From IMG/VR virus record IMGVR_UViG_3300045988_068596: a stretch of 64,000 nucleotides of DNA, one strand, 5' to 3'. Source of the stretch: a virus. Shown piece after piece: positions 8,845 through 54,064 of the stretch. How positions within the stretch are numbered: position 1 is the first letter of the stretch; every line of letters begins with the position of its first letter. The notes beneath the pieces are model-generated. The model made no database searches, was not told the origin of the DNA, and worked only from the letters and a program-made list of their open reading frames with translations. The position numbers were made by a program, and so were the translations under genes.

Positions 8845-10089
8845 CTATTTCGCTTTAAAATTATATACAGGTTTGACAATCTTTTGAATATCTACTGTAT
8901 CTTTGATGATTTCTTTGATTTCGTCAGCATTCTTGTATGCTTTTGGTGCTTCGTCTAGTGTACTTTGAACAACAGATGTTGTATAGATACCAGACATTGT
9001 TTGTTTAAACTCATCTAAGTCAAGCAGTTCTTTTGCTTTAGAACGAGACAATACACGCCCTGCTCCATGAGGTGCAGAATTATTCCAATCAGTGTTTCCT
9101 TTTCCTACACCAATGATAGAGCCTTCTTTCATGTTTAAAGGAATAACAAGTCTAACACCCTCCTGTGCATCTGTGGCACCTTTACGAATAGTGTTGGAGG
9201 CTACATCAATATAATTATGAATAGAGTCAAATGAGTCAACTACAGTCCAACCCATATTAGAAACAATCTTATCAATGATAGTTTTACGATTCATGTAAGC
9301 ATAACGTTGTGCTAGTTGCATATCATTTAAATAGTCATCCACTGCGGAACCTTCTAAGTATGGCAATTGTGGTTTAACATTGACAGCTTTAAAATTCTTA
9401 ATAGCCTCTTGGATTTCTGCCTGTCTGCCTTCTTGCTTAAGTGTCTCAATCATAGTTGCTAAACCTTTGTCATCACGTTCATGGTATAAATCCGCTTTCT
9501 TCTGGTGATATTGGGCTACTTTAAGTCCTAAAGAACGGGAACCTGTATGAACTAACAAGTAGTAATTGTTTTCGTCATCTTTACTTAATTCGATAAAATG
9601 GTTTCCACCACCTAAAGTACCTAAAGATAAGGTAACACGTTCAATAAATGGTTCTTCTGTTGCACCTTTAAACGTCATAGATTCTAACATGTGCTTAATC
9701 GTATTCGGTACAGTAGGATGAAGTTCGTCCAAATTTTCTCTAATGTTAAACCCAGAAGGAACCACTTTGTTAATCACTGCGTCCAATTTAGCCCATTCGG
9801 TATCTGTCGTGTCTTCTGGCTTCTCAATTTGAGCTACCATAATACCACAACCTACATCTACACCAACAATAGAGGGTACAACTCGTTTAATACCGTCTGG
9901 ATAATGAATCGTTGTACCAACTGTAGAGCCTTTACCATAATGTGCATCTGGCATAATTCTAACAATGCCACCGTCTGTTACCGGTTCATTAATCATTGTT
10001 GTAACCTGACCGATAGTGCCTTCATCGACTGTATTAATAAACATTTTCGCATCAGTATACTTACCGTTAAGTTCAATTAAGTTATTCAT
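8845..10089 (-). CDS. rtcB: RNA-splicing ligase RtcB
   Basis: 414 aa; the motifs MPDAHYGKGSTVG and GVDVGCGM and the C-terminal NSAPHGAGR match RtcB family signatures. Confidence 0.85.
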   Translation of the reverse strand: MNNLIELNGKYTDAKMFINTVDEGTIGQVTTMINEPVTDGGIVRIMPDAHYGKGSTVGTTIHYPDGIKRVVPSIVGVDVGCGIMVAQIEKPEDTTDTEWAKLDAVINKVVPSGFNIRENLDELHPTVPNTIKHMLESMTFKGATEEPFIERVTLSLGTLGGGNHFIELSKDDENNYYLLVHTGSRSLGLKVAQYHQKKADLYHERDDKGLATMIETLKQEGRQAEIQEAIKNFKAVNVKPQLPYLEGSAVDDYLNDMQLAQRYAYMNRKTIIDKIVSNMGWTVVDSFDSIHNYIDVASNTIRKGATDAQEGVRLVIPLNMKEGSIIGVGKGNTDWNNSAPHGAGRVLSRSKAKELLDLDEFKQTMSGIYTTSVVQSTLDEAPKAYKNADEIKEIIKDTVDIQKIVKPVYNFKAK

Positions 10090-10358: not shown

Positions 10359-11099
10359 TTAAACAAATTCTTCTCTTACTTCTCCCCAACTTTGGTCTGG
10401 GTCTGGTAAGCTAAAAGGTAGTTTCTCCTGTTCTTCCTTAGATAAGCCCTGATAACATTTCTCATGTACTGCAATGGTTCCAGAACTACCCTGAGCAACG
10501 GGTAACGCACTAATCAATTCCCCCATAGCTTCCCTAAACTTTTTATAGTCTTCGTCATCAGCGTTATCGACTAGGACATACACATCGCATTCTGCTTTAC
10601 GTGCATTTGCAATGTTTTCCTCACTAGGAGCATCATAGAAATTTTTTCTTTGTAATTCAAGATACTTAACTGCTTTAATTAGTCTTTTAGCATAGTTTTT
10701 AGCTATCGGGTCAACATCAATACCATTTTGTAAATATTCTACTAATTGATACTTCGCATCCCCTGATGAGATACCGAATAGAGATAAGCAACTTGTAGAT
10801 AAAATATCTCCACTTGGAAGTATCTTGTTAGAACCAAAATGGTGAGAATCCGCCCTACCAAACTCTGAATCACATATCTCAGAGTGGCTATTAGGGTTTG
10901 GAGCACCGTCTACTGTATAGTCTTCACCTCTATAGTCCTTATCTTCCATGACACCACCATACTCATTGTAGTGCCCTACCGTTTCTCCAATTAACTTTCC
11001 CTGTCTAACATGTTTTAACCGACAAAGTTCCCCACCATTAAAGCAGTCACCCACAATCTGTGTATTACATACTGGACAAATATAACCAAAACATCCCAT
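10359..11099 (-). CDS. hypothetical Cys-rich protein
   Basis: ORF; N-terminal CPVCNT...C...C. Confidence 0.5.
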   Translation of the reverse strand: MGCFGYICPVCNTQIVGDCFNGGELCRLKHVRQGKLIGETVGHYNEYGGVMEDKDYRGEDYTVDGAPNPNSHSEICDSEFGRADSHHFGSNKILPSGDILSTSCLSLFGISSGDAKYQLVEYLQNGIDVDPIAKNYAKRLIKAVKYLELQRKNFYDAPSEENIANARKAECDVYVLVDNADDEDYKKFREAMGELISALPVAQGSSGTIAVHEKCYQGLSKEEQEKLPFSLPDPDQSWGEVREEFV

Positions 11100-11311
11100 T
11101 AGTTCTCTCCTCCTTTTTCACTTGGGTCTACAAACGGAATATCTATTGCACCAACCGCTTCATAGTAAGGGACAACCCGATATAGCGTTCCCGGACGATG
11201 CTTACTAGAATTTTTCATAGCACCTTCTGCTCTACCTTTTGTCGTATGCACCCCTTTTACAATAATTTCACCGGTAACTCTATGTTTCATTTCTAATACA
11301 TATAATGGCAT
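11099..11311 (-). CDS. hypothetical protein
   Basis: ORF. Confidence 0.45.
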   Translation of the reverse strand: MPLYVLEMKHRVTGEIIVKGVHTTKGRAEGAMKNSSKHRPGTLYRVVPYYEAVGAIDIPFVDPSEKGGEN

Positions 11312-11312
11312 C

Positions 11313-12053
11313 TTACATTCCCCCTACAAGTTGGATACCTTCGTTTTTAAAGGATACTTCTCTAGCTTTTTCTATTTGTTCTAGTATACGCACAGCTTGT
11401 GAAGCACCACCAAAGCCATTGTTGATATTCACAACAGAAATACCAGAAGTGCAACTAGTTAGTGCAGTATTTAACGCTGTGTAACCATCTGCTGAAATAC
11501 CGTAACCTGTTGAAGTTGGTACAGCAATAATAGGTAAATCAATTAAACCTGCAAGTACTACAGGTAGTGCTCCCTCAAAGCCTTGTACAGATACTACCGC
11601 ATTACTCTTTGTAATAGCATCTGTAGAAGCCATTAGTTTTTTCAAGTCATTTACACCAATATCATGAAACGACACAGGGACATATCCATTTAAAAGTACG
11701 GTTAAATAAGCTTCGTCTACGGTGTCTCTATCAGCTACACCCGCAGATGTAATTGCCACAGATAGGTCACTCTCTGTAGGGTTTGCACGATAAAACGCTG
11801 TCTGACTAGACTTGCAATACACAAAAGGGCTTCCCTCTCCCCAATTATCTACCCAATCTGGTTCCTCAAGTTCCTCTGCTTTTTCTATAATTTCCCCCCA
11901 AGAGAGAACCTGTGATGTTTCAAAAGGTAGTGCGTAGAACACGTCTAAAGGTAATTTTGTTACCATGATATTTGTATCTGCGGGTATCTCTGCAATCTGA
12001 CTGGCTAGTTCCTGTGCAGTTTTATTTCCACCAAATAGTGTACGTAATTTCAT
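11313..12053 (-). CDS. LarB-like / PurE-family enzyme (homolog of the pyridinium-3,5-biscarboxylic acid mononucleotide synthase)
   Basis: 246 aa; the C-terminal block FEGALPVVLAGLIDLPIIAVPTSTGYG...VVNINNGFGGA closely resembles the LarB/PurE-like fold motif GMEGALPSVV..PVIAVPTSVGYG..VVNIDNGFGAA. Confidence 0.6.
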   Translation of the reverse strand: MKLRTLFGGNKTAQELASQIAEIPADTNIMVTKLPLDVFYALPFETSQVLSWGEIIEKAEELEEPDWVDNWGEGSPFVYCKSSQTAFYRANPTESDLSVAITSAGVADRDTVDEAYLTVLLNGYVPVSFHDIGVNDLKKLMASTDAITKSNAVVSVQGFEGALPVVLAGLIDLPIIAVPTSTGYGISADGYTALNTALTSCTSGISVVNINNGFGGASQAVRILEQIEKAREVSFKNEGIQLVGGM

Positions 12054-12295
12054 TAGTTAATCTCCTCTAAAAATTTAGTTTTGTCTACTGGTTCTATCGT
12101 TCCATCTTCCTCGATTCCTTGAACTTTGAATAGTAAGAACTCTGGCATCGCACAGACAACAGCAGGGTCATATGCTGTTTCCGGGTCACATGCCATCTCA
12201 AACATGTTAGTGTCTTTGTTATAGAAAAAACATAAGTCCCCGATTCTTTCATCTGGGTATAAAAAGTCAGCAATGTAAAAAGCCATGTATTTCAT
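12053..12295 (-). CDS. hypothetical protein
   Basis: ORF. Confidence 0.45.
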   Translation of the reverse strand: MKYMAFYIADFLYPDERIGDLCFFYNKDTNMFEMACDPETAYDPAVVCAMPEFLLFKVQGIEEDGTIEPVDKTKFLEEIN

Positions 12296-12665: not shown

Positions 12666-13516
12666 TATGCACCAACTCCAATTTCTTCATCTAGCTTTAA
12701 GGATTTAATCTTATTACTAAACATGTTAGCTTGCTCATTATAATGTAAAGCTAACAACATCTTAATGTTATTTTCAAACTCAGATGCTTTTGAATCCACA
12801 TATGCTTCCCGCACTAGTGAATACATTGTGATGTTATCCTTACAGAATGCCCAAAGAGGCGTATCCAACTCACTTTTTAGCACACGAGTTTTAAACAGAT
12901 AGTCTGGCTCTTTGCTACGGTTCTCAATTTGCTTTTCTGTAATTTTCAAGTCTTCTTCTCGGATTTTCATTACACGAGTGGTACATGTAAAGTCTCCTTC
13001 GGTTACTTCCGATGGTCTAACATCTACTCGTACACCAACTAAATATAAAGAATCCTCTCTTGAAATGTATACAGGTTCTATGTCCACAATCTTAGTGAAT
13101 GGGCACTCGTAACCATTCTTAGCAAACCAATCTGTAATTAAGGACTGTAACTCATCTTGCTTATCTTCTGGAATTTCATCTGTTAGGTAGTAGTCCTCTG
13201 CAACTTCCCCAACTTCTTCATAGACCATCTCTTGTGTACGTTCCAAGAATGAATCAACATCTACAGGGAGATAAACCGGAGCCACTCTTCCAACTACAAA
13301 ACTGTTGATTGGTTCTTCTGGTAGAAATCCTAAAATATCCTCTACGTGTTCCCAGATTTCCTCTACAAAAGTTTTCCCATTTCTAACGGCATCTACGGCT
13401 AGTTTACCTGCATGAATAGCCTCTTCCTTGGTATCGAAATAAGCACAAGCTCTCCAAACTTCTACATCTGTATCACTTGCACACATCCATTTTCCTACTA
13501 AAGACTCATTACTCAT
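12665..13516 (-). CDS. hypothetical protein (283 aa)
   Basis: ORF. Confidence 0.5.
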   Translation of the reverse strand: MSNESLVGKWMCASDTDVEVWRACAYFDTKEEAIHAGKLAVDAVRNGKTFVEEIWEHVEDILGFLPEEPINSFVVGRVAPVYLPVDVDSFLERTQEMVYEEVGEVAEDYYLTDEIPEDKQDELQSLITDWFAKNGYECPFTKIVDIEPVYISREDSLYLVGVRVDVRPSEVTEGDFTCTTRVMKIREEDLKITEKQIENRSKEPDYLFKTRVLKSELDTPLWAFCKDNITMYSLVREAYVDSKASEFENNIKMLLALHYNEQANMFSNKIKSLKLDEEIGVGA

Positions 13517-13827
13517 TTTTTCTTTCCTCCCATTTTATCCTTATCTAGACCCCATATATGTGCCCATTTACGACAAAAGTGTTTATCATAATCTAAGTCC
13601 ATACCGGTAGCACCTTCGAAGTCTTTAAACTCTTCATAAAATTCCGATTCTTTAAACTCATCCCACTTTTTCAATTCAACCATCCTATACATAAGTTGGT
13701 CAAATTGATAGTCTGGTATTTTAATTGCATCTAATTCATAATACAGATAACTGTGTAGTAGTAAAGCACGCTCTGTCATATTTATAAAGGACAGGTTATC
13801 TAGTATAGTATTATTTACAACGGTCAC
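13513..13827 (-). CDS. hypothetical protein
   Basis: ORF. Confidence 0.45.
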   Translation of the reverse strand: MTVVNNTILDNLSFINMTERALLLHSYLYYELDAIKIPDYQFDQLMYRMVELKKWDEFKESEFYEEFKDFEGATGMDLDYDKHFCRKWAHIWGLDKDKMGGKKK

Positions 13828-20675: not shown

Positions 20676-21209
<534 letters not shown>

Positions 21210-21236
21210 TTACTCCTCTATGCAATTTAATTATGA

Positions 21237-21587
21237 TTATGTTGTGACTATTAATAGAACTAACAATTGAAGATAATGAACTGTTTGGTCAATTGTTAAT
21301 TGTGTTTTGGGGTCTGGTACTATCGAAGGAAACCATGTACTTTGTGCTTTGAGATAATCCATTACAAAATGTGGTAACCATAGAACAATTAAAATGTGTG
21401 CTAATGTAATAGACAAACCAATTAGGTAGCCTGTCATAGCAATTGTAAAAGTCCAAATAGTTGCATGGATAAATAACACATACAAGTCTTTTGTTTTTTC
21501 TCTTGCAATATATTCACTTTGTAGTGCGTAATCTCCTACAGCATGTGCCCCTACTAACATAACAAACATAGTAATATATGGTGTCAT
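21237..21587 (-). CDS. integral membrane protein
   Basis: 3-4 predicted TM helices. Confidence 0.45.
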   Translation of the reverse strand: MTPYITMFVMLVGAHAVGDYALQSEYIAREKTKDLYVLFIHATIWTFTIAMTGYLIGLSITLAHILIVLWLPHFVMDYLKAQSTWFPSIVPDPKTQLTIDQTVHYLQLLVLLIVTT

Positions 21588-31154: not shown

Positions 31155-31898
31155 CTAGGCTAGCTCTTTATTTTTACCTTTGGTTAATTTACCACTTTCA
31201 TCATACCACGCATAGATGGCAGTTACAACATTTGTTTGATATAAAACATCTCTAATTGCGAACCAGTAGTTACCAGAACCGAAATCTAGTAAGAACCAGA
31301 AGAAGTTACTTGCAAACCATCCCCACCATGAAAAGTCGATTCGCATAATCATTAAGAATTGAGATACGATTCCTAGTAAGTAAGCAATAATGTTACCCCA
31401 ATACATGATGTTACCCATTAGGGAACCATCTGTAGTAAAACCAATTTTATCTCCGTACATAATTAAGACAATTAAACCTACAATTGTGAATGCTAAAGTA
31501 AATACTACCCAAAAAGCGTTCATCTTACCTACTTTAATACGCCCATCTTCATCTTGATTGGATTCTTTTGTCCACTCTTTTAACCCGATAATGTGTGTAA
31601 TACCGTAGTAAATACCTGCAAAAGCCAAACCGAAGTTCCCAAACATAGTATTAATAATGATTTCACCAACGTTAGAACTAATACCTAAGATATTTCCCAT
31701 TTTAGGATAACGGTCTGCTAAAGATACCACACAAGGTACACCTAAGCAGTATGCTGTGATATAAAATAACCAGTTAGTTTTATCTGACCAGTCGGTAACA
31801 AACACCCCCACAACCAGTCCCAGTACCACCAAAGTGATTGCGTACTGTTTGCGCCACTTCCCATTAGCTAGTGAAATATTGTCCATAAATGTTTTCAT
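31155..31898 (-). CDS. pnuC: PnuC-family nicotinamide riboside transporter
   Basis: about 7 TM helices, 247 aa, Trp-rich helices typical of PnuC; adjacent to nadR. Confidence 0.55.
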   Translation of the reverse strand: MKTFMDNISLANGKWRKQYAITLVVLGLVVGVFVTDWSDKTNWLFYITAYCLGVPCVVSLADRYPKMGNILGISSNVGEIIINTMFGNFGLAFAGIYYGITHIIGLKEWTKESNQDEDGRIKVGKMNAFWVVFTLAFTIVGLIVLIMYGDKIGFTTDGSLMGNIMYWGNIIAYLLGIVSQFLMIMRIDFSWWGWFASNFFWFLLDFGSGNYWFAIRDVLYQTNVVTAIYAWYDESGKLTKGKNKELA

Positions 31899-31899
31899 A

Positions 31900-32265
31900 T
31901 TATTTCTCCTCCTTTGTTTTTGCCCAAGAAATTATAACTACTCTTACCGGTTCCCCATTGATGTAAATATGCGTTTTAGTATTTACTGTAAAACCTCTTT
32001 CTGCCAAAACCTCCGACAGAACTTGCTCCTGACTATAAAACATCTTCCACGCTAACGCATTTTTATTTGAAGCTAAAATTAATTCTCTACTATGGGGAGC
32101 CTGTTCCTTGATTAAACCTAAAATGTAATTAAGCTCTTTTCTATAGTTTTCTTTCGCATAGAGCTGTCTAGCACTTTCAGCATTAAAGTCTGCCAACTTT
32201 CTCTCTTCTACTAGCCCATTTAAAAACTCATCTGCCCAAGAAGATTCTTCTTTTTCACTCATCAT
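31900..32265 (-). CDS. hypothetical protein
   Basis: ORF between pnuC and nadR. Confidence 0.4.
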   Translation of the reverse strand: MMSEKEESSWADEFLNGLVEERKLADFNAESARQLYAKENYRKELNYILGLIKEQAPHSRELILASNKNALAWKMFYSQEQVLSEVLAERGFTVNTKTHIYINGEPVRVVIISWAKTKEEK

Positions 32266-33389
32266 ATCTCCTCCTTGTTAGTCCAAATTTCGTCCACATA
32301 TAATTGCAATGTATCAACTGTAGTTCCTTCTAGGTACTTTTCGATAATTTTCTTGCAAAGTTCATAACGAGTTTCATAATCACTCGCAGTTACCTCCACA
32401 TATGGGATATGATTCTCCGCATATAATCTCTTCAACAGGTTTTGGAAGTCTTGTCTACGTTTTTCATCACCGATTAAACGCATACCATCATCTACCCATT
32501 TAGTCGAATTATCTAGCAAAATAACCAAGTCAAAGCGGTCATTGTCAATCTTATCTTGTACAGATGGATGGGGTTTTCCTTCATACGTAATACAAAAGGC
32601 TTGTGTAGCTACGTAGTCTGTATCTGAAATAGTAAATCTATTAGCATTACGTCTTGCAAATCTAACATCTTGATAGTGACCATTAGCAATTGCTTGGTAG
32701 TCACTGTACTGTAACGCACTCTCATCTCCGCCTAATTCAAGTTCACAGTAGTTACGACCGTATTCCCAAACAGTCGTAGTAGCAAAGTAGTTACCTAGCT
32801 TATCTACCATCAAAGTTTTACCACTAGACTCTCCTCCTGCAATTACAATTGTAGGAGCCAATGCTTCCCGGCTAGCACGAGGTAGATAGTCCCAGTACTT
32901 AATAGGGTTGTTACGTACTTTTGTTGCACTAATGTTAACATTAGAACGCTCTGGGTCTACTAACGTAGTAGGACAGCCAAAGTATTTTTGGTACCCTTCC
33001 GCATCCTGTGGTTCACTTGAAAAGAAGGTTGCTTCTTCCCAATCAAAACCTCTTTCAGCCAACACACGATTACCTGTTACAGTCTCTTTCACAAGGTTTG
33101 CCCATGCTTCCCATCCGTTAGGATACTCTGGAATGCTTGATTCATCTACGAGTACAGGAATGATAACATCTCGTTGAACTTGAAAAGTCTTTTGAACAAT
33201 TCGTAGTTTGTCTCGTGCTGTTAGTGGACGTTTCATGTTAGAATCCATGTATAAACGGTCATCTCTACTGTCTGAGTGGCTTACCACTACAACAAGAGTC
33301 TCTACTTGTGTGCTTGCTTTTTGAATCATATCTACATGTCCTTTGTGTAAGGGATAGAATTTCCCAACTACTACTCCGAACTTTTTCAT
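32262..33389 (-). CDS. nadR: NadR-like bifunctional NMN adenylyltransferase / ribosylnicotinamide kinase
   Basis: N-terminal GKFYPLHKGH (HxGH nucleotidyltransferase) and a downstream Walker A GGESSGKT (RNK domain). Confidence 0.7.
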   Translation of the reverse strand: MKKFGVVVGKFYPLHKGHVDMIQKASTQVETLVVVVSHSDSRDDRLYMDSNMKRPLTARDKLRIVQKTFQVQRDVIIPVLVDESSIPEYPNGWEAWANLVKETVTGNRVLAERGFDWEEATFFSSEPQDAEGYQKYFGCPTTLVDPERSNVNISATKVRNNPIKYWDYLPRASREALAPTIVIAGGESSGKTLMVDKLGNYFATTTVWEYGRNYCELELGGDESALQYSDYQAIANGHYQDVRFARRNANRFTISDTDYVATQAFCITYEGKPHPSVQDKIDNDRFDLVILLDNSTKWVDDGMRLIGDEKRRQDFQNLLKRLYAENHIPYVEVTASDYETRYELCKKIIEKYLEGTTVDTLQLYVDEIWTNKEEI

Positions 33390-46530: not shown

Positions 46531-46617
46531 TGGAAGGCATGGGATTCGAACCCACACATGCTGTTACACATCTACTTGGTTTCCAACCAAGCCTCTTTAC
46601 CGTTTGAGTAACCTTCC
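46531..46617 (-). tRNA. tRNA-Ser (GGA), class II
   Basis: acceptor GGAAGGT, anticodon stem-loop CTTGG-TTGGAAA-CCAAG, long variable arm. Confidence 0.7.
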
Positions 46618-46712
46618 GTCTTGGGAGCAGGCGGGTTTGTGTCAAGTACACAATACCTAATCTTTTGTGCATGTTGTTCCCTAGGCTTCATGCACACCCT
46701 ACTATCTGCATA

Positions 46713-46898
46713 CTAACAGACCTGCCAATTTTCTAACACTTTTTCTAATGCTTCGTATGGACACATTACTGTCTTACCGTGAACATCATGTATTCTCAAA
46801 ATAATATAATGCTCATTTATCTCGGAGGTAACAAAGTATATCTTGTCCTTCACTAAACCTAAACTTCCGTTTAAACCAATGAATTTTAAATACATCAT
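46713..46898 (-). CDS. hypothetical small protein
   Basis: ORF with AGGAGG RBS. Confidence 0.4.
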   Translation of the reverse strand: MMYLKFIGLNGSLGLVKDKIYFVTSEINEHYIILRIHDVHGKTVMCPYEALEKVLENWQVC

Positions 46899-47211
46899 GT
46901 TACCTCCTAACTATGTATAACCCATGAAGCATCATGGGGGGACTGTAGTATGCCCAACCTGCGGGGATGCTCCGCTCTGAATCCGTAGAAATCAGCCACA
47001 ATTATGTCACTGGTAAGGATTTGCACCTTACATGCACACTTCCATTAGTTAGTCGGCACCTTCGAGATAGGGACATACAGCTTCAATTTTCTAATGGATT
47101 TATAGGAATCTAGCCTTACAGTTGTTTACCCGACTTGTTCTAGACTAGCCTGAATCTTCCCCTGTGCTATACTGTGTTAATTAGCGTTTACCTATTCCGC
47201 CACAGTGACTA

Positions 47212-47559
47212 TGGAGTAGACGGGACTCGAACCCGTGTCCTAACGTAGAACCATACAAAATTCTACGGGCGTAGTTACTAGTTTTAATCTACGTTAAGGT
47301 TACAACTAATAACTGAAATTACCTTAACTGAGTGGTAAAGCCTCTCCTGAGTTATCCACTTTTACCTCAGCGTTGTCGGTTAATGAGTCCTCTAGGTAGA
47401 ACCGACCCTAGTCTAGAGGGGTAAGTGTGTAGCTAGTCTAAAACTAGGCTACAGCTAATAATTCTTCGTTTTTAGCAGTTATATTTACTGCGATGATTAA
47501 GTCATCACTCTGCCCGCTATTCATATATTTCTTACGCCAGTCGAAACCAAAACTACCCC
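47212..47559 (-). ncRNA. ssrA: tmRNA (SsrA), tag peptide AKNEELLAVA
   Basis: 5' end GGGGTAGTTTTGGTTTCGACTGGCG (compare tmRNA 5' GGGGCUGAUUCUGGAUUCGACGGG). Internal frame GCT AAA AAC GAA GAA TTA TTA GCT GTA GCC TAG (47447-47476). 3' tRNA-like end ACGGG-TTCGAGT-CCCGT-CTACTCC-A pairs with the 5' GGGGTAG. Length about 348 nt. Confidence 0.75.
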
Positions 47560-47792
47560 AACATAAGAATTTCTTTTGACTAACCCTACCCTTCCGGCAG
47601 GGTCTAATCAAAAGTATACAATTAAAAAAATGAAAATGAGTTACGGAAAATGTAACATCTCCACCACCGGACTATAAGGGTAAGTTGTTCCGGTCTTTAA
47701 CCTAAGTACTTTACTTAAATCTAACAGGACAGTCTTCATTACGTAAACTACTTAACCATGTAAAACGTAAAGGTCAATTTCCGTTGACCTAA

Positions 47793-47877
47793 TACAAGAG
47801 GAGGGATTCGAACCCTCACGCCCATCATAGGCATGGCATTCTAAGTGCCACATGTCTACCAATTCCAACACTCTCGC
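47793..47877 (-). tRNA. tRNA-Leu (TAG), class II
   Basis: anticodon stem-loop TGGCA-CTTAGAA-TGCCA, long variable arm, T-arm GAGGG-TTCGAAT-CCCTC. Confidence 0.7.
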
Positions 47878-47962
47878 ATAATAACAGCCCTACCCACCTA
47901 CTGTTCTGCTAGCATATAGCTTGCAGGCTTTTTATCTGTGTTATAAAAACCAGAAAGGTTAT

Positions 47963-48045
47963 ACAGGTAACAGGAGTCGAACCTGCATGTCACAAAGGAC
48001 AATGGATTTTAAGTCCACAGCGTATACCAATTCCGCCATACCCGC
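47963..48045 (-). tRNA. tRNA-Leu (TAA), class II
   Basis: anticodon stem-loop GTGGA-CTTAAAA-TCCAT, T-loop TTCGACT. Confidence 0.65.
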
Positions 48046-48222
48046 ATAATCACTTTTTAAACTAGATTATTTATGATTCCTCACTTCTGGAAAAATACCA
48101 CTTTATATATCAACATTTTTCTTATGAATGGGTTAAGATATGTTTTAACGAAAAAGAGGCTAAAAGAGTATTTCCTCAAAATTTTCGGTCAAGTTAATCT
48201 AGTAAGGAAAAGTGTAACCTTA

Positions 48223-48294
48223 TGTGACTGCTCAGAATCGAACTGAGATTCATGTTTCCACAGAACACTGCCTTACCATTAGGCTACAGTCACC
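48223..48294 (-). tRNA. tRNA-His (GTG) with encoded G-1
   Basis: extra 5' G before acceptor GTGACTG/CAGTCAC; anticodon loop CTGTGGA. Confidence 0.75.
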
Positions 48295-48365
48295 ATCATG
48301 TGTTCCTTACAAGAATTACTATACAGCATCTTGTAAGGAAAGTCAACACTTACATATAAATTTAT

Positions 48366-48587
48366 TTAAAAAAGTTTTGATGAATCTAATTGAGAGAAAC
48401 TTTCGGGTAGAGAACCTAGCTCTTCCATGTACTCTTGGTCAATCTCGTAAACAGTTAACTCCGTTACTTCATTTTCAATGGTAAGTTTCATTGCTTCTGC
48501 TGTTTGTATACTGTGTCCTTCTACTTGAAGCTTATCATCAAGATAAATGCCTTCCCAGTCTCCTGCAACTACATAATCTGCTTTCAA
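48366..48587 (-). CDS. hypothetical acidic protein
   Basis: ORF. Confidence 0.4.
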   Translation of the reverse strand: MKADYVVAGDWEGIYLDDKLQVEGHSIQTAEAMKLTIENEVTELTVYEIDQEYMEELGSLPESFSQLDSSKLF

Positions 48588-48595
48588 GATATTAC

Positions 48596-48847
48596 CTACT
48601 TTCTCCTCAATTTCTGATAAAAATTATTATCCTTGTAATCTTCCTCGTGGGCATAAAATTTTTTCATATCATATGTCCAACAAGTTTCTTCTAATCGTTT
48701 ATGATGTGTCAATGTTACTTCATCATCAAAACGACCTTGATTTAATTTATGCCTGTAATTTCTGTTAACCATTCTTTTTATGTCTCGAACAGTTGAATCC
48801 TTCATACAAACATAACGGTAATAGGGTTTTCTGTAACTTCTACTCAT
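48596..48847 (-). CDS. hypothetical basic protein
   Basis: ORF with AGGAGGA RBS. Confidence 0.45.
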   Translation of the reverse strand: MSRSYRKPYYRYVCMKDSTVRDIKRMVNRNYRHKLNQGRFDDEVTLTHHKRLEETCWTYDMKKFYAHEEDYKDNNFYQKLRRK

Positions 48848-48900
48848 TGTAAGTCCTCCTTAATAGGTACTTACAATTTATTTAACCTTTTTTTCATTTT

Positions 48901-49185
48901 TTATAGCCCTCTTTCGAACAGACGTCTTAAAGTCTTACCCTCATTATTTAAAACATATACCGAGTTAACATAAGCCTTTGTCTCTCCTTTGTTGTCAACT
49001 CTATATTCATAGGGTTCATTTGGAACACGGGTAATCTCTTCATGTTTAGAATTAAGTAAAGAAAAAGCATTTTCTTGTTCTAAAAGAAATTGTACCCCAT
49101 CAATAAGTTCGATAAAAGGTTTAGTGGTTGGTTCAGTGCTGTCTTTTGGAACGTATTTTCGTTCTCCCAAAATTTGTAATATCAT
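48901..49185 (-). CDS. hypothetical protein
   Basis: ORF with AGGAG RBS. Confidence 0.45.
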   Translation of the reverse strand: MILQILGERKYVPKDSTEPTTKPFIELIDGVQFLLEQENAFSLLNSKHEEITRVPNEPYEYRVDNKGETKAYVNSVYVLNNEGKTLRRLFERGL

Positions 49186-49293
49186 ATCTATCTATCTCCT
49201 ATATGTGAATATATTTACCTCCCGAAAAACGTTTCTTCACCAAAGTGTAAGACGTAAACTAACGACAGGTCATAGTTTTCCAATTAAGGCAAA

Positions 49294-49367
49294 TACCAGT
49301 GAGAGGATTTGAACCTCTGACACCCGCCTTATCAAGACGATGCTCTAACCAACTGAGCTACACTGGT
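49294..49367 (-). tRNA. tRNA-Ile (GAT)
   Basis: acceptor ACCAGTG, D-arm GCTCAGTTGGTTAGAGC, anticodon loop TTGATAA. Confidence 0.8.
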
Positions 49368-49520
49368 GTGACCCATGTGTCAGGACTTTCACCTGTTCTC
49401 GGGGTGCCCCGCCTCTCTACTAATCTCCTCATTCGGTGCCCCTAATAGAGTGACTAGAGATAGTTAGCAGTAAAAATTATATATCATGAATCAAATTTTT
49501 ACTGCATCCTATATACACGA

Positions 49521-49592
49521 TACCGTCTACAGGATTTGAACCTGTGACATCCACCTTGTAAGGGTGGCGTTCTCCCACTGAACTAAGACGGT
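49521..49592 (-). tRNA. tRNA-Val (TAC)
   Basis: anticodon stem-loop CCACC-CTTACAA-GGTGG, T-loop TTCAAAT. Confidence 0.8.
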
Positions 49593-49600
49593 GAAAAATA

Positions 49601-49669
49601 CGGAAGACAGGATTTGAACCTGCGATATAGGAGTTTTAGTGCACTCATTGTCTCCCACGGTATCCGTTG
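49601..49669 (-). tRNA. tRNA-like element, anticodon unassigned (possible pseudogene)
   Basis: canonical T-arm GCAGG-TTCAAAT-CCTGT and a partial acceptor; no clean D or anticodon arm. Confidence 0.3.
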
Positions 49670-49701
49670 CGTATTGCCATCACGCCACTCCCGTATGCTA
49701 A

Positions 49702-49774
49702 CCGACAGTAAAGGAATCGAACCTCTATCACTAGATTCGTAGTCTAGCATCCTATCCAATTGAACGAACTGTCG
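49702..49774 (-). tRNA. tRNA-Arg (ACG)
   Basis: acceptor CGACAGT/ACTGTCG, anticodon stem-loop CTAGA-CTACGAA-TCTAG, T-loop TTCGATT. Confidence 0.75.
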
Positions 49775-49876
49775 CTCTAGGCTAGCAATTACGCAGACTG
49801 ACTATAGGCACCTTCGTCCCGTCACCTGTAAGTGCCCTCCTACAGGTTGTCCGTGGCACCGCAATGTACTAACCGA

Positions 49877-49950
49877 TGTCCCCACAGGGATTTGAACCCC
49901 GAACCCCCCGATTAAAAGTCGGGTGCTCTAGCCAATTGAGCTATGAAGAC
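49877..49950 (-). tRNA. tRNA-Lys (TTT)
   Basis: D-arm GCTCAATTGGCTAGAGC, anticodon stem-loop CCCGA-CTTTTAA-TCGGG. Confidence 0.75.
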
Positions 49951-50009
49951 AGTTGTGTTTTTCAAGATAACCCTCTCGAAAAACCGTTACTAATAGAAAA
50001 ACTAAGGGT

Positions 50010-50083
50010 CTCGACTGACAGATTTGAACTGCCTGCTCCTCCTAAGAGGCGTGTTACCAAAGCCATACACCAACTCTTCGAGA
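50010..50083 (-). tRNA. tRNA-like pseudogene (anticodon arm replaced by a closed hairpin)
   Basis: T-arm GGCAG-TTCAAAT-CTGTC and a 6-bp acceptor, but the anticodon region is the closed hairpin CCTCTTAGGAGG. Confidence 0.3.
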
Positions 50084-50084
50084 A

Positions 50085-50158
50085 TATCCCCTACAGGATT
50101 CGAACCTGTGACCCCCTGATTAAGAGTCAGGTGCTACCACCAACTGAGCTAAGGAGAT
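50085..50158 (-). tRNA. tRNA-Lys (CTT)
   Basis: anticodon stem-loop CCTGA-CTCTTAA-TCAGG, T-arm ACAGG-TTCGAAT-CCTGT. Confidence 0.65.
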
Positions 50159-50175
50159 AAGATTATCAATAGCTA

Positions 50176-50248
50176 GTTAAGCCTTACGGAATCGAACCGC
50201 CATGAGGTTATGAAGCTCACATAGACCACTAGACACAAAACTAGCTTA
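50176..50248 (-). tRNA. tRNA-like with CAT anticodon (Met/Ile2?), degenerate
   Basis: T-loop TTCGATT, loop TTCATAA; weak stems. Confidence 0.35.
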
Positions 50249-50350
50249 TTGATAAAATTCTATATAGATAATTGTATGCAATGTTCGCACTAACTAACCA
50301 GATAACCAGTCAATCATTCAAAACATTAATTTGTGAGTTTCCGCTCACAA

Positions 50351-50423
50351 TGCTGATTGAGAGAATCGAACTCCCATTCCCGGGTTACAAAGCCGGAGTA
50401 ATAGCCGTTATACTAAATCAGCG
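50351..50423 (-). tRNA. tRNA-Thr (TGT)
   Basis: acceptor GCTGATT/AATCAGC, anticodon loop TTTGTAA, T-arm GGGAG-TTCGATT-CTCTC. Confidence 0.65.
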
Positions 50424-50447
50424 TAACCCCTCAATAGAGGGGAATTA

Positions 50448-51539
50448 TTATACTAAGTTACCATACCCGTAGGTATTTGTTTGAGCTTGTTTAAACATAA
50501 TGCTCTTGATAGTTAAGTCGTTGTACTTTTCATCGTCTTCATCATCAAGGTACACATCAACGTTAACGTTCTTACCGGAAATACCGATTGTTTCGTCTTT
50601 ACCAACTGTTAAGTCTTTACTGTTGAAGGATACATCAAAGTAAATGCTATCTTCTTTTGTACGACTACCGAACGAAACTCTGTCACCGAATAAATCTAAG
50701 CTTCGAGAGTTGATTACAACAGGTTGTAACCCACCTTCAAATTGAATAGTTACTGTGTAATATTGATTTTCAATATTAAGGATGTTTAAGTCAGCAATAG
50801 CTTCACCAAATGGGATACCAAAGCTTAATTCCAATGCAATTGCTCGTAAGCAGTCATAGTTTAACTTAATTCTACGACTAAACTTAACAACACTGTCAAT
50901 TTCACCATAGTAAGCTTCGTCTAACTTATCTTGCAAGTAAGTACGAATTTCATCTGCATCAGGATATTCGAAACGTAAATGATAATGGAAACGTCCCGGA
51001 CGGTTAAGCATAAAGTCATTTACACGACTTAAGCTATTAACAGTAAGAGCGTAGATACGTTTACGTTGTGATAAACCATCGAATAAGCTCAATAGTTTTT
51101 CTTGTGGTTCACGACCGTCACGGTCATTAAATACTTTTTCAAATTCATCGAACAGGATAAGAGACTCTTGGTCAATACTGTCAATAAATTCTGCAATCCC
51201 CGGATAAGCTTCTGTAATTAAGATAACAGGCATATCCTCTTCAATAGCTCGTTGAGATAATATTTGAGTAAATAGTGATTTACCAATCCCTTTGTCTCCA
51301 CTTAAAATGATTCCTAAGCTACGATTAATTGTTTTAAATGTGTGTAGCACTTTTTCAATTTTAGCTAAACGGTCACCGTAAACTTTAGGTTCTTTCAATT
51401 CAAAATCGTCTGTTACTACTAGTGAGAACCCAGACATTGGATTGAATCGAACTTTATAAGTTTGCGCAGGCAACTTATCATAAGTTTTAAGGTCGTTTGC
51501 ATAAATTTCATAGTTACTACCATAGTTGATTACTTTCAT
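50448..51539 (-). CDS. AAA+ ATPase
   Basis: Walker A GDKGIGKS and Walker B ILFDEFE; start MKVINYG (the ORF-track upstream extension would overlap tRNA-Phe). Confidence 0.6.
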   Translation of the reverse strand: MKVINYGSNYEIYANDLKTYDKLPAQTYKVRFNPMSGFSLVVTDDFELKEPKVYGDRLAKIEKVLHTFKTINRSLGIILSGDKGIGKSLFTQILSQRAIEEDMPVILITEAYPGIAEFIDSIDQESLILFDEFEKVFNDRDGREPQEKLLSLFDGLSQRKRIYALTVNSLSRVNDFMLNRPGRFHYHLRFEYPDADEIRTYLQDKLDEAYYGEIDSVVKFSRRIKLNYDCLRAIALELSFGIPFGEAIADLNILNIENQYYTVTIQFEGGLQPVVINSRSLDLFGDRVSFGSRTKEDSIYFDVSFNSKDLTVGKDETIGISGKNVNVDVYLDDEDDEKYNDLTIKSIMFKQAQTNTYGYGNLV

Positions 51540-51578
51540 AAATATTCCCCTTATTCGTGTTTTATTAGCATTTGCTAA

Positions 51579-51652
51579 TGGAGAGGGGTGGAATTGAACC
51601 ACCGACCCCTAGGGTTTCAATCTAGTGCTCTAACCTACTGAGCTACCTCTCC
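51579..51652 (-). tRNA. tRNA-Phe (GAA)
   Basis: acceptor GGAGAGG, D-arm GCTCAGTAGGTTAGAGC, anticodon loop TTGAAAC. Confidence 0.7.
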
Positions 51653-51774
51653 GTGTCAATTTGGACTTATCCCCCACGTGGTTACTAAGATAAGTCCTAT
51701 GCCTTTGAAGTGTGGATACTCAAAAAATGAGTACAGGTACTAAAAATCTGATGACAAGTCAGATTTATGTCATA

Positions 51775-51847
51775 AGCAGAAGGTGAGATTCGAACTCACG
51801 TTCAGGGGTTTGCAATCCCTAGCCTTAACCCACTTGGCTACTCCCGC
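51775..51847 (-). tRNA. tRNA-Cys (GCA)
   Basis: anticodon loop TTGCAAA, T-arm GTGAG-TTCGAAT-CTCAC. Confidence 0.65.
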
Positions 51848-52087
51848 ATTGGCATCCCTCTAGGTTTTTATCTGCATCGGGACTCACATAAACTGATAAG
51901 TGAAAACAGGGCACTAGTCTGCTTTACACCTGCGCTATCAGAACCTAGACTCAGCAACACTGCCTTAGATGACTTTAATCTTGTAAACACGTCACATTCT
52001 TCAACAATTACCAGTAGAGTGCTACATACCAGTAATTCGTTCCTGTGAAGGATAGTACACTATAACTATCACCGCTGTCCAAGAATA

Positions 52088-52159
52088 CACGCCGTGAAGG
52101 ATTCGAACCCCCGTCTTCCGGGTTGGAGCCGGAAATGATAGCCACTACACCAACAGCGC
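52088..52159 (-). tRNA. tRNA-Trp (CCA)
   Basis: anticodon stem-loop TCCGG-CTCCAAC-CCGGA. Confidence 0.7.
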
Positions 52160-52246
52160 AAGATTCGGAGGGGAGGGACTAGCAACCCTCCGAAAAATGT
52201 AAGATAATGAGAGATTAAAACATGCCACTATTAAAAGTGGAATAGG

Positions 52247-52292
52247 TAATTAAGGATTCGAACCTTACAAGCCCTTACTGCTTACCTTGTAA
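52247..52292 (-). ncRNA. tRNA-like minihelix (acceptor plus T-arm only)
   Basis: AGGTAAG, 13 nt, TAAGG-TTCGAAT-CCTTA, ATTACCT; no D or anticodon arms. Confidence 0.3.
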
Positions 52293-52329
52293 ACTTATAG
52301 TATCATGTGTTGTACCGAAAGTCAACACT

Positions 52330-52362
52330 TTTTATAAAAATAATAGGGAGAAATATTTCTCC
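52330..52362 (-). terminator. intrinsic terminator (GGGAGAAATATTTCTCCC plus T-run)
   Basis: perfect hairpin followed by TATTATTTTTAT on the minus strand, then an AAGTGTTGAC promoter. Confidence 0.5.
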
Positions 52363-52369
52363 CTAAAAA

Positions 52370-52443
52370 TGGACTATACCGGAATTGAACCGATGACCTG
52401 TCAGTTATGAGCTGACGGCTCTGACCTACTGAGCTAATAGTCC
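52370..52443 (-). tRNA. tRNA-Met (CAT)
   Basis: D-arm GCTCAGTAGGTCAGAGC, anticodon stem-loop GTCAG-CTCATAA-CTGAC, T-loop TTCAATT. Confidence 0.8.
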
Positions 52444-52650
52444 GTGTAATAATACCACGAAATAAACCTTAGTAAGTCATATAGTCCCAGAAAGGGAGAC
52501 ATATGAAACTAGTGTTGAATGCCATAATCGTTTAATAAATGTGACTGAGAGAGTAATAAATTTCTTAGGCATGTCCATATGCCCCCTTTCCAATAATGAT
52601 AGTTTTAAGATATAAACAGAATAAATAAAAGAGAAAATAATAATGAATAA

Positions 52651-52723
52651 TAGCGCATGAGAGAGTCGAACTCTCGATTCCGGTTCGAAAGACCGGTGTC
52701 TTGACCGCTTGACCAATGCGCCA
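52651..52723 (-). tRNA. tRNA-Arg (TCG)
   Basis: anticodon stem-loop CCGGT-CTTTCGA-ACCGG. Confidence 0.7.
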
Positions 52724-52727
52724 TAAA

Positions 52728-52803
52728 CGAGCTATATGGGACTTGAACCCATGACCTTCTCCGTGACAGGGAGACGAGCACTCCTGACTGCTCCAATAGC
52801 CCA
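52728..52803 (-). tRNA. tRNA-Asp (GTC)
   Basis: anticodon stem-loop TCTCC-CTGTCAC-GGAGA, T-arm ATGGG-TTCAAGT-CCCAT. Confidence 0.7.
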
Positions 52804-52927
52804 ATGTTTCCCCAACCACCGCCACCTAGGGGATTCGTACGTCTACGTGAGTTTTCTGGTTATACATTATTGTTCAAGACAATAGTTGTACGAGTGGAAT
52901 ACCAATTTACCACTCTGCGGTTCCTAT

Positions 52928-52999
52928 TGCGGTAGGTGGGAGTCGAACCCACTAAAGCTTGGTTATGAGCCAAGTGCCTAAACCGTTCGGCATCTCCGC
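52928..52999 (-). tRNA. tRNA with CAT anticodon (Met/fMet/Ile2), imperfect acceptor stem
   Basis: anticodon stem-loop CTTGG-CTCATAA-CCAAG, T-arm GTGGG-TTCGACT-CCCAC. Confidence 0.55.
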
Positions 53000-53702
53000 A
53001 GTAATACAAGTCTGGTTAAAAACTCAAAACTTAATAGATTAAGGGCTTTTCTTCCTGCTTCATATACACTCACTGCATTCGGTCACATACTCAGAGAGGC
53101 TGAACCATCGGGAGCTACCCAATAGCTTCTCTCTGCCTTTAATGTATGGTCTAGCACGGTGGCTAACAACGTTCACCTAAACATTCAGCATTAAAAGTAT
53201 TATTTTACATATAACCCATATGTCTTCTGTAATATTTTCATCCAACGCTGACTTAAGCTACTTGTACCAAGGTCTCTTGTTAAACCTGTATTTCTACAGT
53301 TCTCGTCAAAGGGAGTCTTTTGAGTTTTCCAAGGTCTGCCAAGCTTCTCACACTTCCACCTAACTTGGATTCTTTTCCACAGGAACGTCTATTGTATCCC
53401 CCAAGAGTCTTGTACCTTACAATCCATGTATACTCCACATAACGCTTAACTGATATTAGCTTTTACTAATAGTTACTCCTATGTTACCATAAGACCTACC
53501 TGCAACCCAAAGCACTATCGCACCTTCGGTTACATCCAGATTCACGCCACGTTATCCTAGCAAGCTGTTCAAACTTTCTGCACTAGGTTCAAAATCTATT
53601 AAGTTTTCAATTTTTAACCACTAACTTGTGGTGTAATATTAATATAGCATAACATTACAAAGTTGTAAACACCTTTTTGTAAGTTTTTTTGATTTTTTTT
53701 GA

Positions 53703-53791
53703 TGGAAGGTAAGGGGGTCGAACCCTTACACCGGATTTCTCCGACCTAACTGATTAGCAATCAGCCCTCTTAACCATTTGAGTAACCTTCC
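53703..53791 (-). tRNA. tRNA-Ser (GCT), class II
   Basis: acceptor GGAAGGT, anticodon loop TTGCTAA, long variable arm. Confidence 0.7.
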
Positions 53792-53830
53792 AAAAGCAAA
53801 AAGGGAACCCCTGTAATTAAACAGGGGTAA
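53792..53830 (-). terminator. intrinsic terminator (CCCCTGT..ACAGGGG plus T-run)
   Basis: hairpin followed by TTCCCTTTTTGCTTTT on the minus strand. Confidence 0.55.
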
Positions 53831-53900
53831 GAGAGATGTCTCTAAAAGCCTACAACCATTATAACATAGAAACATAGTTTGTACAGCCGTAACTGTACAA

Positions 53901-53972
53901 CTGTCAGGACAGGGTTCGAACCTGTATCGCAACCTTCAAAGGGTCGTGTCCTACCTGTTAGACGACCTGACA
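53901..53972 (-). tRNA. tRNA-Gln (TTG)
   Basis: acceptor TGTCAGG/CCTGACA, anticodon stem-loop CGACC-CTTTGAA-GGTTG. Confidence 0.7.
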
Positions 53973-53974
53973 AA

Positions 53975-54022
53975 AAGGTGGAACCTCCCTAAATTTGGGG
54001 AAGAGGGAGGTTCTCATGCTAT
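53975..54022 (-). terminator. intrinsic terminator-like hairpin (GAACCTCCCT/AGGGAGGTTC)
   Basis: 10-bp stem followed by CACCTTTTTG on the minus strand. Confidence 0.4.
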
Positions 54023-54064
54023 TAACAAACACGAATTTGCTAACCAAGTAATCTTGACTAGCAA

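Follow-up and report, generated by a model that had tools for sequence, protein, structure and literature searches.

An open reading frame in a phage genome segment of 64,000 nucleotides (IMG/VR record IMGVR_UViG_3300045988_068596; this whole stretch is hereafter called the window) raises two questions, namely whether its product is a LarB rather than a PurE of purine synthesis, and what use a phage could have for such an enzyme. Studies of LarB have until now concerned its part in making the nickel-pincer cofactor from an NAD precursor, a pathway which it opens by converting NaAD and CO2 to P2CMN and AMP. An earlier note on this DNA, made from the letters alone, had described the product as a LarB-like enzyme of the PurE family without LarC or LarE partners, and had placed it beside PnuC and NadR in the NAD metabolism of the phage.

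The gene and its genomic setting

The window has a GC content of 36-38% and shares 97-99% identity with the EFDG1/EfV12-phi1/TJE2 group of Enterococcus phages, taken here to be the genus Schiekvirus. The phage carries about 26 tRNAs and one tmRNA. The gene under study and its translation signals are as follows.

11313..12053, minus strand: phage LarB-like coding sequence, 246 amino acids plus TAA, with ATG start (ORF list, codons checked)
12054..12075, minus strand: ribosome-binding site AGAGGAG and TAATG overlap of the upstream stop codon with the LarB start codon (read from the sequence)

The ORFs 12053..12295 and 11099..11311 abut the gene on either side, and the Shine-Dalgarno sequence and the TAATG overlap indicate that it lies within a long minus-strand operon of small early-region genes. 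A gene encoding RtcB is found 1.2 kb downstream on the same strand. The dN/dS ratio of the LarB gene against three orthologues was 0.07-0.16, which together with the invariant catalytic residues described below indicates, as far as sequence can tell, that the gene is functional and under purifying selection; a pseudogene or decaying copy was ruled out by the same ratio.

The protein is matched over its full length by PHROG 24096, the function of which is annotated as unknown. Several GenBank phage records label the gene LarB, P2CMN synthase or circadian phase modifier, and some phage records name it AIR carboxylase. The LarB gene matched none of the PADLOC defence-system models, and when the flanking ORFs were scanned with Pfam, PHROG and PADLOC, no defence model matched and no hidden LarA, LarC or LarE emerged.

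Identification of the product as a LarB-family protein

The NCBIfam LarB model NF033503 matched the phage protein with an E-value of 2e-46 and 158.3 bits, over amino acids 77-225 only, which is below the curated equivalog cut-off of 175 bits. The string of C-terminal LarB motifs that the earlier note had read from the translation was present (EGALPVVLAGLIDLPIIAVPTSTGYGISADGYTALNTALTSCTSGISVVNINNGFGGA), and with this E-value the resemblance is far above chance. The sequences of the solved Lactiplantibacillus plantarum LarB were matched with E-values of 7e-28 (7MJ0) and 2.6e-28 (8SOQ), without gaps over amino acids 97-223, a stretch which corresponds to residues 117-243 of the L. plantarum enzyme. 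The structure code 7ZC0, which had been proposed for comparison, was absent among the LarB entries returned (7MJ0, 7MJ1, 7MJ2, 8SOQ, 8STC and 8STD).

LarB is an octamer whose active sites lie where subunits meet. An AlphaFold model of the phage LarB monomer, built with 118 homologues as input, had a pLDDT of 87.9. In Foldseek it matched every LarB chain in the PDB (among them 7MJ0 and 8STD) with an E-value of about 1e-16 and a TM-score (target) of 0.86, at about 33% sequence identity, over about 219 columns, so that both LarB domains are covered. PurE structures matched the same model with an E-value of only about 1e-6 and a TM-score of 0.47.

The sequence profiles of PurE agreed with this. 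With the PurE model TIGR01162 the protein reached 14.1 bits, the cut-off being 149.6, and with Pfam AIRC (PF00731) it reached 28.1 bits over amino acids 147-228, where the gathering score is 30. The hallmarks of PurE are a GSxSD P-loop and a catalytic His in the 40s loop; the aligned P-loop and 40s-type loop of the phage protein read SAGVADR and GVNDLKK, and both hallmarks are missing from it. The earlier note had named classical PurE as the homologue that would speak against its reading, and it is LarB that scores best, with 158.3 bits against 14.1 for TIGR01162. The product of ORF 11313-12053 is a LarB-family protein with the two-domain LarB fold and not a PurE, which is only a distant fold relative.

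Domains, catalytic residues and remodelled loops

The domains and the residues discussed in this section are located as follows.

11766..12053, minus strand: N-terminal LarB-type domain, amino acids 1-96 (secondary structure of the model, Foldseek, weak HMMER alignment)
11370..11765, minus strand: C-terminal PurE-fold catalytic domain, amino acids 97-228 (ungapped LarB alignment, Pfam AIRC)
11727..11741, minus strand: P-loop G105-V-A-D108-R109, cellular consensus G-T-S/A-D-L (column counts)
11637..11651, minus strand: loop N135-D-L-K-K139, replacing cellular A-G-(I/L)-(H/W)-R (column counts)
11577..11585, minus strand: signature of the phage subfamily, Q157-G158-F159 (cellular A-G-M), just before Glu160
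11574..11576, minus strand: codon of Glu160, equivalent to LarB Glu180 (alignment, codon checked)
11451..11453, minus strand: codon of Cys201, equivalent to L. plantarum LarB Cys221 (alignment, codon checked)

Residues were counted in an alignment of 29 phage-type and 89 cellular sequences, the cellular set consisting of the best 89 matches only, 30 of which form one near-identical group. The N-terminal domain was aligned weakly by HMMER, amino acids 5-42 corresponding to LarB 51-89. Its core, (Y/F)G..K(T/S)...N(I/L)(M/L)(I/V)T(K/R), is kept and reads LRTLFGGNKT...NIMVTKL in the phage protein, for which the cellular counterpart is G-x-PEVVYGxGKT...LxTR. K11 is a Lys in 27 of the 29 phage-type and in all 89 cellular sequences. 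The cellular G-x-P-E motif is missing from the phage domain, and its Glu, found in 89/89 cellular sequences, is replaced by R, I or V in the phage set. A variable insert modelled with low confidence occupies approximately amino acids 45-75, with pLDDT below 50 at amino acids 61-73; across the C-terminal domain pLDDT is mostly above 90.

Conservation of the LarB catalytic Cys, which the earlier note had raised, was borne out, since the position of Cys201 is a Cys throughout the alignment of 118 sequences (29/29 phage-type, 89/89 cellular). In work attributed to Rankin et al. 2021, the equivalent Cys221 of L. plantarum LarB is reportedly the nucleophile that attacks the pyridinium ring at C4, with Glu180 as the proposed base taking the C5 proton after CO2 capture. 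The position of Glu160, equivalent to Glu180, is Glu in 29/29 phage-type sequences and always acidic in the cellular ones (Glu in 59 and Asp in 30 of 89). The VPT, GYG and VNI-NG motifs, as well as the Gly and the Asp (D108) of the P-loop, are invariant in the aligned sequences.

Around this preserved core, several positions differ between the two groups. The P-loop Thr (T126 in L. plantarum numbering, present in 94% of the cellular sequences) is replaced by L, I or V in the phage clade, which has also gained a clade-specific Arg (R109). The S127 position is always Ala in the phage clade, as it is in 31% of the cellular LarBs sampled, and replacing this Ser by Ala in L. plantarum LarB (S127A) has been reported to shift the reaction from unproductive hydrolysis towards the dicarboxylated product (PMC13524815). 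In the signature before Glu160, the position of Q157 (A177) is Gln in 29/29 phage-type sequences versus Ala in 89/89 cellular ones, and that of F159 (M179) is Phe in 29/29 versus Met in 82/89. R159, present in 89/89 cellular sequences, is Lys in 25 of the 29 phage-type sequences, and G156, likewise found in 89/89, is D, T or N in the phage clade. By analogy with PurE, the loop N135-K139 would be the counterpart of the '40s loop', and the changes would affect all three loops that bind substrate, namely the P-loop, the '40s loop' and the '70s loop'. The replacements are conserved within the phage clade, and these changes at otherwise invariant positions point to altered specificity of the phage LarB rather than to decay.

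A phage-only subfamily of LarB

In a search of 5.8 billion proteins about 30 clusters aligned with the phage LarB over its full length at 45-97% identity, and cellular LarBs aligned only over the C-terminal 55-60% of the protein. The 29 phage-type sequences formed one split in 200/200 neighbour-joining bootstraps of the C-terminal domain, with an overall identity among members of only about 40-60%. In an exhaustive profile search the phage-type proteins and a few further clusters of the QGFEG type came on top, with 354-186 bits, and most of the approximately 4,000 LarB clusters scored at most 178 bits. By these comparisons the phage LarBs are a monophyletic, phage-only subfamily.

The lytic carriers are Enterococcus phages of Schiekvirus and Kochikohdavirus. 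Another carrier is a 97-kb related contig, where the LarB gene is near genes for Gad2, YoqU and NADAR. Temperate prophage carriers, with integrase, ERF, RusA/VRR_NUC and terminase genes, have LarB in the early region; one of their LarB clusters is named from Lactobacillus intestinalis genomes. A further group of carriers consists of phages that encode DNA polymerase III alpha along with PnuC and Nudix, and members of the subfamily were also found in other gut phage contigs. The phage-type loci are not independent and represent roughly six lineages. An all-against-all BLAST of the neighbouring genes in six contexts gave only the LarB homologue as common to all, the one exception to this lack of shared neighbours being the backbone synteny between the window and its Herelle-like relative (L002). 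The accessory early regions around LarB also carry Gad2, NADAR, a solo Nlig-Ia domain, Mom and Sequestin.

Scans of IMG/VR and the JGI metagenome collection added few phage-type loci. Back-translated VQGFEGALP was found in 12 stretches of the JGI collection, 6 of which were phage-type LarB genes, and the other 6 had no LarB match. Three 'viral' matches of 44% identity were rejected as low-GC bacterial larB-larC loci. The matches listed in a GTDB scan with the phage-clade alignment were all cellular LarBs sharing at most 52% identity, none of them in a prophage or from Enterococcus, and the plasmid collection contained no phage-type LarB copy. A literature search found no relevant study of a phage LarB, and LarB and PurE are unmentioned in the largest survey of viral NAD/ADP-ribose systems, which thus provides no precedent. 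The phage-only LarB subfamily is new, and the LarB label of some GenBank records was known already.

LarC, LarE and the lar genes of the host

Partner genes were searched with LarA, LarC1 and LarE of a complete lar operon from Lactiplantibacillus daoliensis (L072) as queries. In tblastn no homologues of LarA, LarC or LarE were found in the whole 64-kb window, and LarC or LarE occurred within 10 kb at 61 of 80 cellular LarB loci versus 0 of 19 phage-type loci. The statement of the earlier note that no LarC or LarE was visible near the gene thus holds for the window and extends to the 19 phage-type loci. Among 50,697 phage records, no LarC or LarE was found in any complete phage or in any Enterococcus phage, the sole matches being three short unannotated faecal fragments, which are pieces of ordinary lar operons.

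The lar genes may be provided by the host. According to a transcriptome paper, Enterococcus faecalis OG1RF, which is the listed host of a 97.5% identical relative of the window phage, has larA, larC and larE, expressed and regulated (PMC13210022), so the missing phage partners do not by themselves imply new chemistry; should these genes truly be there, the phage enzyme could just be supplying the host pathway. Queries with a Lactiplantibacillus LarC and an Aerococcaceae LarE gave no Enterococcus-named protein among the best 120 matches of each, most of which are nameless. Both LarE and LarC are regarded as turning over only once (PMC11796402), and an extra LarB alone should therefore not raise the output of cofactor.

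PnuC and NadR in the same phage

Two NAD-related genes lie 19 kb from the LarB gene in the window.

31155-31898, minus strand: PnuC
32262-33389, minus strand: NadR-like NMN adenylyltransferase/ribosylnicotinamide kinase

PnuC and NadR constitute NARP3, a counter-defence module which rebuilds NAD+ against Sir2-HerA (PMC13464706). NadR was found in 416 phage records, of which 27 were Enterococcus phages, all at least 95% identical; the approximately 389 NadR-carrying phages of other hosts were absent from the 36 records with a LarB match. LarB was present in nine Kochikohdavirus records without a NadR match, and no PnuC or NadR was found in the flanks of about 20 kb in the temperate Lactobacillus prophages with LarB. 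The gene is neither part of the two-gene PnuC/NadR (NARP3) unit nor co-inherited with it. Of the association drawn in the earlier note, the presence of PnuC and NadR in the same phage was correct, and a link to LarB was not supported in the form given there, since the modules occur apart; obligatory coupling was rejected on the Kochikohdavirus phages without NadR and the prophages without either gene.

PnuC does recur elsewhere. In one locus (L106) a divergent LarB-like gene directly adjoins PnuC, and in a related one (L093) a LarB-like gene is 8 kb from PnuC and Nudix. Together with the lineage of the window, this gives two independent phage lineages in which PnuC is next to or near a LarB-type gene. 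This recurrence in a further lineage makes a loose metabolic link possible, and LarB with PnuC and NadR is read as a loose metabolic association, not as a system.

Possible roles of the phage enzyme

That the LarB-type carboxylation chemistry is retained in the phage enzyme seems rather probable. Cys201 would attack a host dinucleotide, NaAD or possibly NAD+, at C4 of its pyridinium ring, the adduct would activate C5 for CO2 capture, and Glu160 would then restore aromaticity. Cleavage of the phosphoanhydride would probably follow and yield AMP and a 3,5-dicarboxypyridinium mononucleotide (P2CMN or an analogue), and the P-loop position which is always Ala suggests tight coupling to the carboxylated product instead of plain hydrolysis. 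The weakest step is the role: during lytic growth the enzyme may convert part of the host pyridine-nucleotide pool, in the service of phage takeover or of counter-defence around NAD and not of lactate racemase supply. The whole statement, a catalytically competent, phage-specific LarB with a stand-alone role on the host NaAD/NAD pool, is the explanation preferred here, tentatively and with somewhat less than even confidence.

A novel NAD-derived reaction, which had been suggested in the earlier note, is plausible, as the predicted substrate loops are remodelled and the score lies under the LarB equivalog cut-off. It is improbable, but conceivable, that a dicarboxylated pyridine nucleotide, be it P2CMN, the uncleaved dinucleotide or a 5-carboxy-NAD analogue, is made for its own sake and acts as a counter-measure against NAD-based immunity. 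Such a product might be an analogue that resists or inhibits NADases; alternatively, LarB might shunt the host nicotinate branch while the PnuC route of the phage rebuilds NAD+. If true, this would be a new metabolite-based form of anti-defence, and LarB chemistry would for the first time be seen at work outside the synthesis of the nickel-pincer cofactor.

A stand-alone role is favoured by the solitary occurrence of the LarB gene in several unrelated phage backbones, with LarC or LarE at none of the 19 phage-type loci compared with 61 of the 80 cellular ones, by catalytic residues that are invariant in a clade of about 40-60% identity with dN/dS of 0.07-0.16, by conserved replacements in all three predicted substrate loops together with a score of 158 bits under the equivalog cut-off of 175, and by PnuC beside or near the gene in two independent lineages; with single-turnover LarE and LarC, moreover, extra LarB by itself should not increase the cofactor output (PMC11796402). 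The changed residues could, however, be neutral drift around the same reaction, and Ala at the S127 position is shared with 31% of the sampled cellular LarBs. No gain from NaAD consumption is evident in a phage whose PnuC and NadR restore NAD+, no PADLOC model matched and the viral NAD/ADP-ribose survey offers no precedent. The lar genes reported in OG1RF also make a plain pathway role possible, and feeding of the host nickel-pincer pathway is a serious rival, even if we consider it on balance unlikely. The gene would then be an auxiliary metabolic gene for an ordinary LarB, which would supply P2CMN from NaAD to host LarE and LarC and thereby, in the course of infection, more cofactor to LarA-type racemases or epimerases of the host. 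The strong homology in both domains, the intact catalytic residues, the annotation in several GenBank records and the larA, larC and larE reported in the host of the 97.5% identical relative would all fit, as would the always-Ala position, which matches the variant described as P2CMN-favouring (PMC13524815). This explanation is weakened by the single-turnover nature ascribed to LarE and LarC, with which LarB would not be the limiting step, by the absence of phage-encoded LarC or LarE, and by the changes at four positions invariant in the sampled cellular LarBs in a protein that scores below the equivalog cut-off. Neither search gave an Enterococcus-named LarC or LarE among its best 120 matches, racemisation of lactate or hydroxy acids has no apparent benefit for a lytic phage, and the same gene is also carried by temperate Lactobacillus prophages.

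The LarB scaffold could instead have been repurposed to capture or cleave NAD+ or an NAD-derived molecule without carboxylation, as a sponge or a phosphoanhydride hydrolase against NAD-based immunity, which we regard as quite unlikely. LarB is said, again with attribution to Rankin et al. 2021, to form a covalent Cys adduct with NAD+, and the title of PDB entry 7MJ1 describes LarB in complex with NAD. Remodelled residues of the phosphate-binding loop, and the Gad2, NADAR, solo Nlig-Ia, Mom and Sequestin genes which the accessory early regions also hold, are in line with such a binder or hydrolase. Yet no Thoeris-type signal is known to have a pyridinium ring, and both the base and the Cys that attacks the ring are strictly conserved; the few sites per oligomer would in addition make a poor sponge for millimolar NAD+. 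LarB is known to yield unproductive hydrolysis products (PMC13524815), but Ala at the S127 position speaks against plain hydrolysis as the selected activity, no PADLOC model matched and no paper on a phage LarB was found. A link to RNA, namely removal or modification of NAD caps alongside the neighbouring RtcB ligase and the phage tRNAs, is very improbable. The position of RtcB 1.2 kb downstream on the same strand, the presence of about 26 tRNAs and a tmRNA, and the cleavage of a dinucleotide phosphoanhydride by LarB would be compatible with it. RtcB joins 3'-phosphate and 5'-OH ends, however, which differ from the 5'-phosphate left by cap removal, and no RNA-binding domain was seen in the Pfam scan; coupling to RtcB was rejected, as RtcB is not a neighbour in any other lineage examined. 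Practically no weight is given to a classical PurE acting as AIR carboxylase or N5-CAIR mutase in purine synthesis, for which the PurE fold of the C-terminal domain and the AIR carboxylase label of some records could be cited. This function was rejected on the profile, structure and motif tests described above, in which TIGR01162 reached 14 of the 149.6 bits, AIRC stayed under its gathering score and the PurE structures matched at about 1e-6 and TM 0.47 against 1e-16 and 0.86 for LarB; the LarB N-terminal domain and the LarB Cys are present, and the P-loop and His loop of PurE are missing.

The phage branch of LarB is conserved, selected, always without LarC and LarE, and has remodelled putative substrate loops. 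This suggests either that phages tap the nickel-pincer pathway of the host, a form of auxiliary metabolism that would be unreported, or that LarB chemistry is put to another use in the phage-host conflict over NAD (NARP1-3, Thoeris, Sir2, TIR NADases), a very active field. Should the enzyme prove to be an ordinary LarB, the result would be modest. The hosts, E. faecalis and E. faecium, and the phages, Schiekvirus and Kochikohdavirus, which are used in phage therapy work, are experimentally tractable.

Comparison with known systems

The phage protein shares with L. plantarum LarB the two-domain fold, the Cys, the acidic base, the P-loop Gly and Asp, the VPT-GYG and VNI-NG motifs and a similar length, and differs from it by R159K, A177Q, G156D/T/N, T126 to L/I/V and M179F in the phage clade. 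The first approximately 40 residues and the N-terminal G-x-P-E motif of L. plantarum LarB are missing from the phage protein. Unlike cellular LarBs, it is phage-encoded, has an insert in the N-terminal domain and never adjoins larC, larE or larA. With PurE it has in common the fold of the C-terminal domain and, if the equivalence of loops drawn by analogy is correct, the arrangement of the three substrate loops, whereas PurE is without the N-terminal LarB domain. The only other viral protein with this fold in BFVD is an 'AIR carboxylase' of Catovirus CTV1 (A0A1V0S9M6; E-value 5.8e-14, TM-score (query) 0.76), a protein of 490 amino acids from a giant virus of eukaryotes, which is twice as long and 23% identical.

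The cyanobacterial CpmA ('circadian phase modifier') is a LarB orthologue and the source of the label in several phage records. The larB, larC and larE homologues of Synechocystis together support synthesis of the nickel-pincer cofactor (PMC11796402). The cyanobacterial gene thus works with LarC and LarE of the same genome, whereas the phage clade has neither and is changed at positions invariant in the sampled cellular LarBs. Like NARP3 (PnuC and NadR), the phage LarB would be a phage enzyme acting on the pyridine-nucleotide pool of the host. It differs from NARP3 in lying outside the two-gene module and being inherited separately, and from the NARP pathways in general in its direction, as these rebuild NAD+ and LarB chemistry consumes an NAD precursor.

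Transcription direction and RNA genes

Both the GC and the AT skew change sign at approximately 6 kb and 56 kb of the window, and these points are probably switches in the direction of transcription, since all of the ORFs examined between approximately 8.8 and 34.7 kb, as well as the RNA genes at 45-54 kb, lie on the minus strand. The RNA genes and an RNA ligase gene were located as follows:

8845-10089, RtcB RNA ligase
45016-54136, minus strand, tRNA array (24 tRNA genes by ARAGORN, 26 by Rfam)
47209-47559, tmRNA with the tag peptide AKNEELLAVA, part of the tRNA array region
53025-53611, minus strand, full-length ROOL RNA within the tRNA array (Rfam RF03087, scoring 260 bits where the gathering score is 99)

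Genes surrounding the LarB-like gene

Three genes flanking the phage LarB-like gene, either in the window or in the related Enterococcus phage ZJGS4, were considered:

13513-13827, minus strand, stand-alone Nlig-Ia domain (match to Pfam PF22745 at E=4e-19), located three genes upstream
10359-11099, minus strand, 246 amino acid protein whose N-terminus is rich in Cys and His (CPVC...C...C..H), located two genes downstream
ZJGS4 20743-21429 (counterpart site in the window ~11100-11313), additional 687-bp gene, directly downstream

Nlig-Ia is the domain (Ia) with which NAD-dependent DNA ligase binds NAD+; the corresponding gene is labelled 'DNA ligase' in relatives. Solo Nlig-Ia domains have been described from 81 phages, and a role in NAD+ sensing was proposed for them (Iyer et al. 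2022).

The protein encoded at 10359-11099 is called a 'minor head protein' by PHROGs and in relatives, a label which looks doubtful because the gene is sited in an early-region operon. It had no match in Pfam or PADLOC, and the gene is not kept beside the LarB-like gene in other lineages. The additional 687-bp gene is found in several close relatives (ZJGS4, GVEsP-1, EA1 and PEf771) and is absent from the window. In the relatives whose sequence was read, namely ZJGS4 and two metagenome contigs, the LarB-like ORF extends a few residues beyond the position of the stop codon in the window; the ZJGS4 gene is annotated as encoding 252 amino acids.

LarB-like genes elsewhere

A divergent LarB-like gene lies beside or near pnuC in a separate group of phages which have DNA polymerase III alpha and a ParM-like protein, represented by two loci:

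L106, 3209-7234
L093, 18804-20149

A Nudix protein, judged by eye to resemble ADP-ribose pyrophosphatase, is encoded near the LarB-like gene, and such flanking sequence as was available showed no NadR. The representative-protein search also gave two entries (P0290 and P0291) that are each a tandem or fused LarB-like protein. In the viral structure collection BFVD, the only other viral structure with a LarB-like fold was a giant-virus 'AIR carboxylase' of 490 amino acids from Catovirus CTV1 (A0A1V0S9M6; E=5.8e-14, TM(query) 0.76).

Comparison of the PnuC/NadR pair with NARP3

The window also encodes a PnuC/NadR pair, identified with Pfam:

31155-33389, minus strand, PnuC, a 121 amino acid ORF and a NadR-like protein

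PnuC (247 amino acids) has the NMN_transporter domain, and the NadR-like protein (375 amino acids) has cytidylyltransferase-like and AAA_28 domains. NARP3, the phage PnuC and NadR module which rebuilds NAD+, was described in 2026 as a two-gene arrangement in Enterobacteriaceae phages, in a paper that makes no mention of Enterococcus (PMC13464706). The gene pair in the window corresponds to this two-gene arrangement and occurs in an Enterococcus phage.
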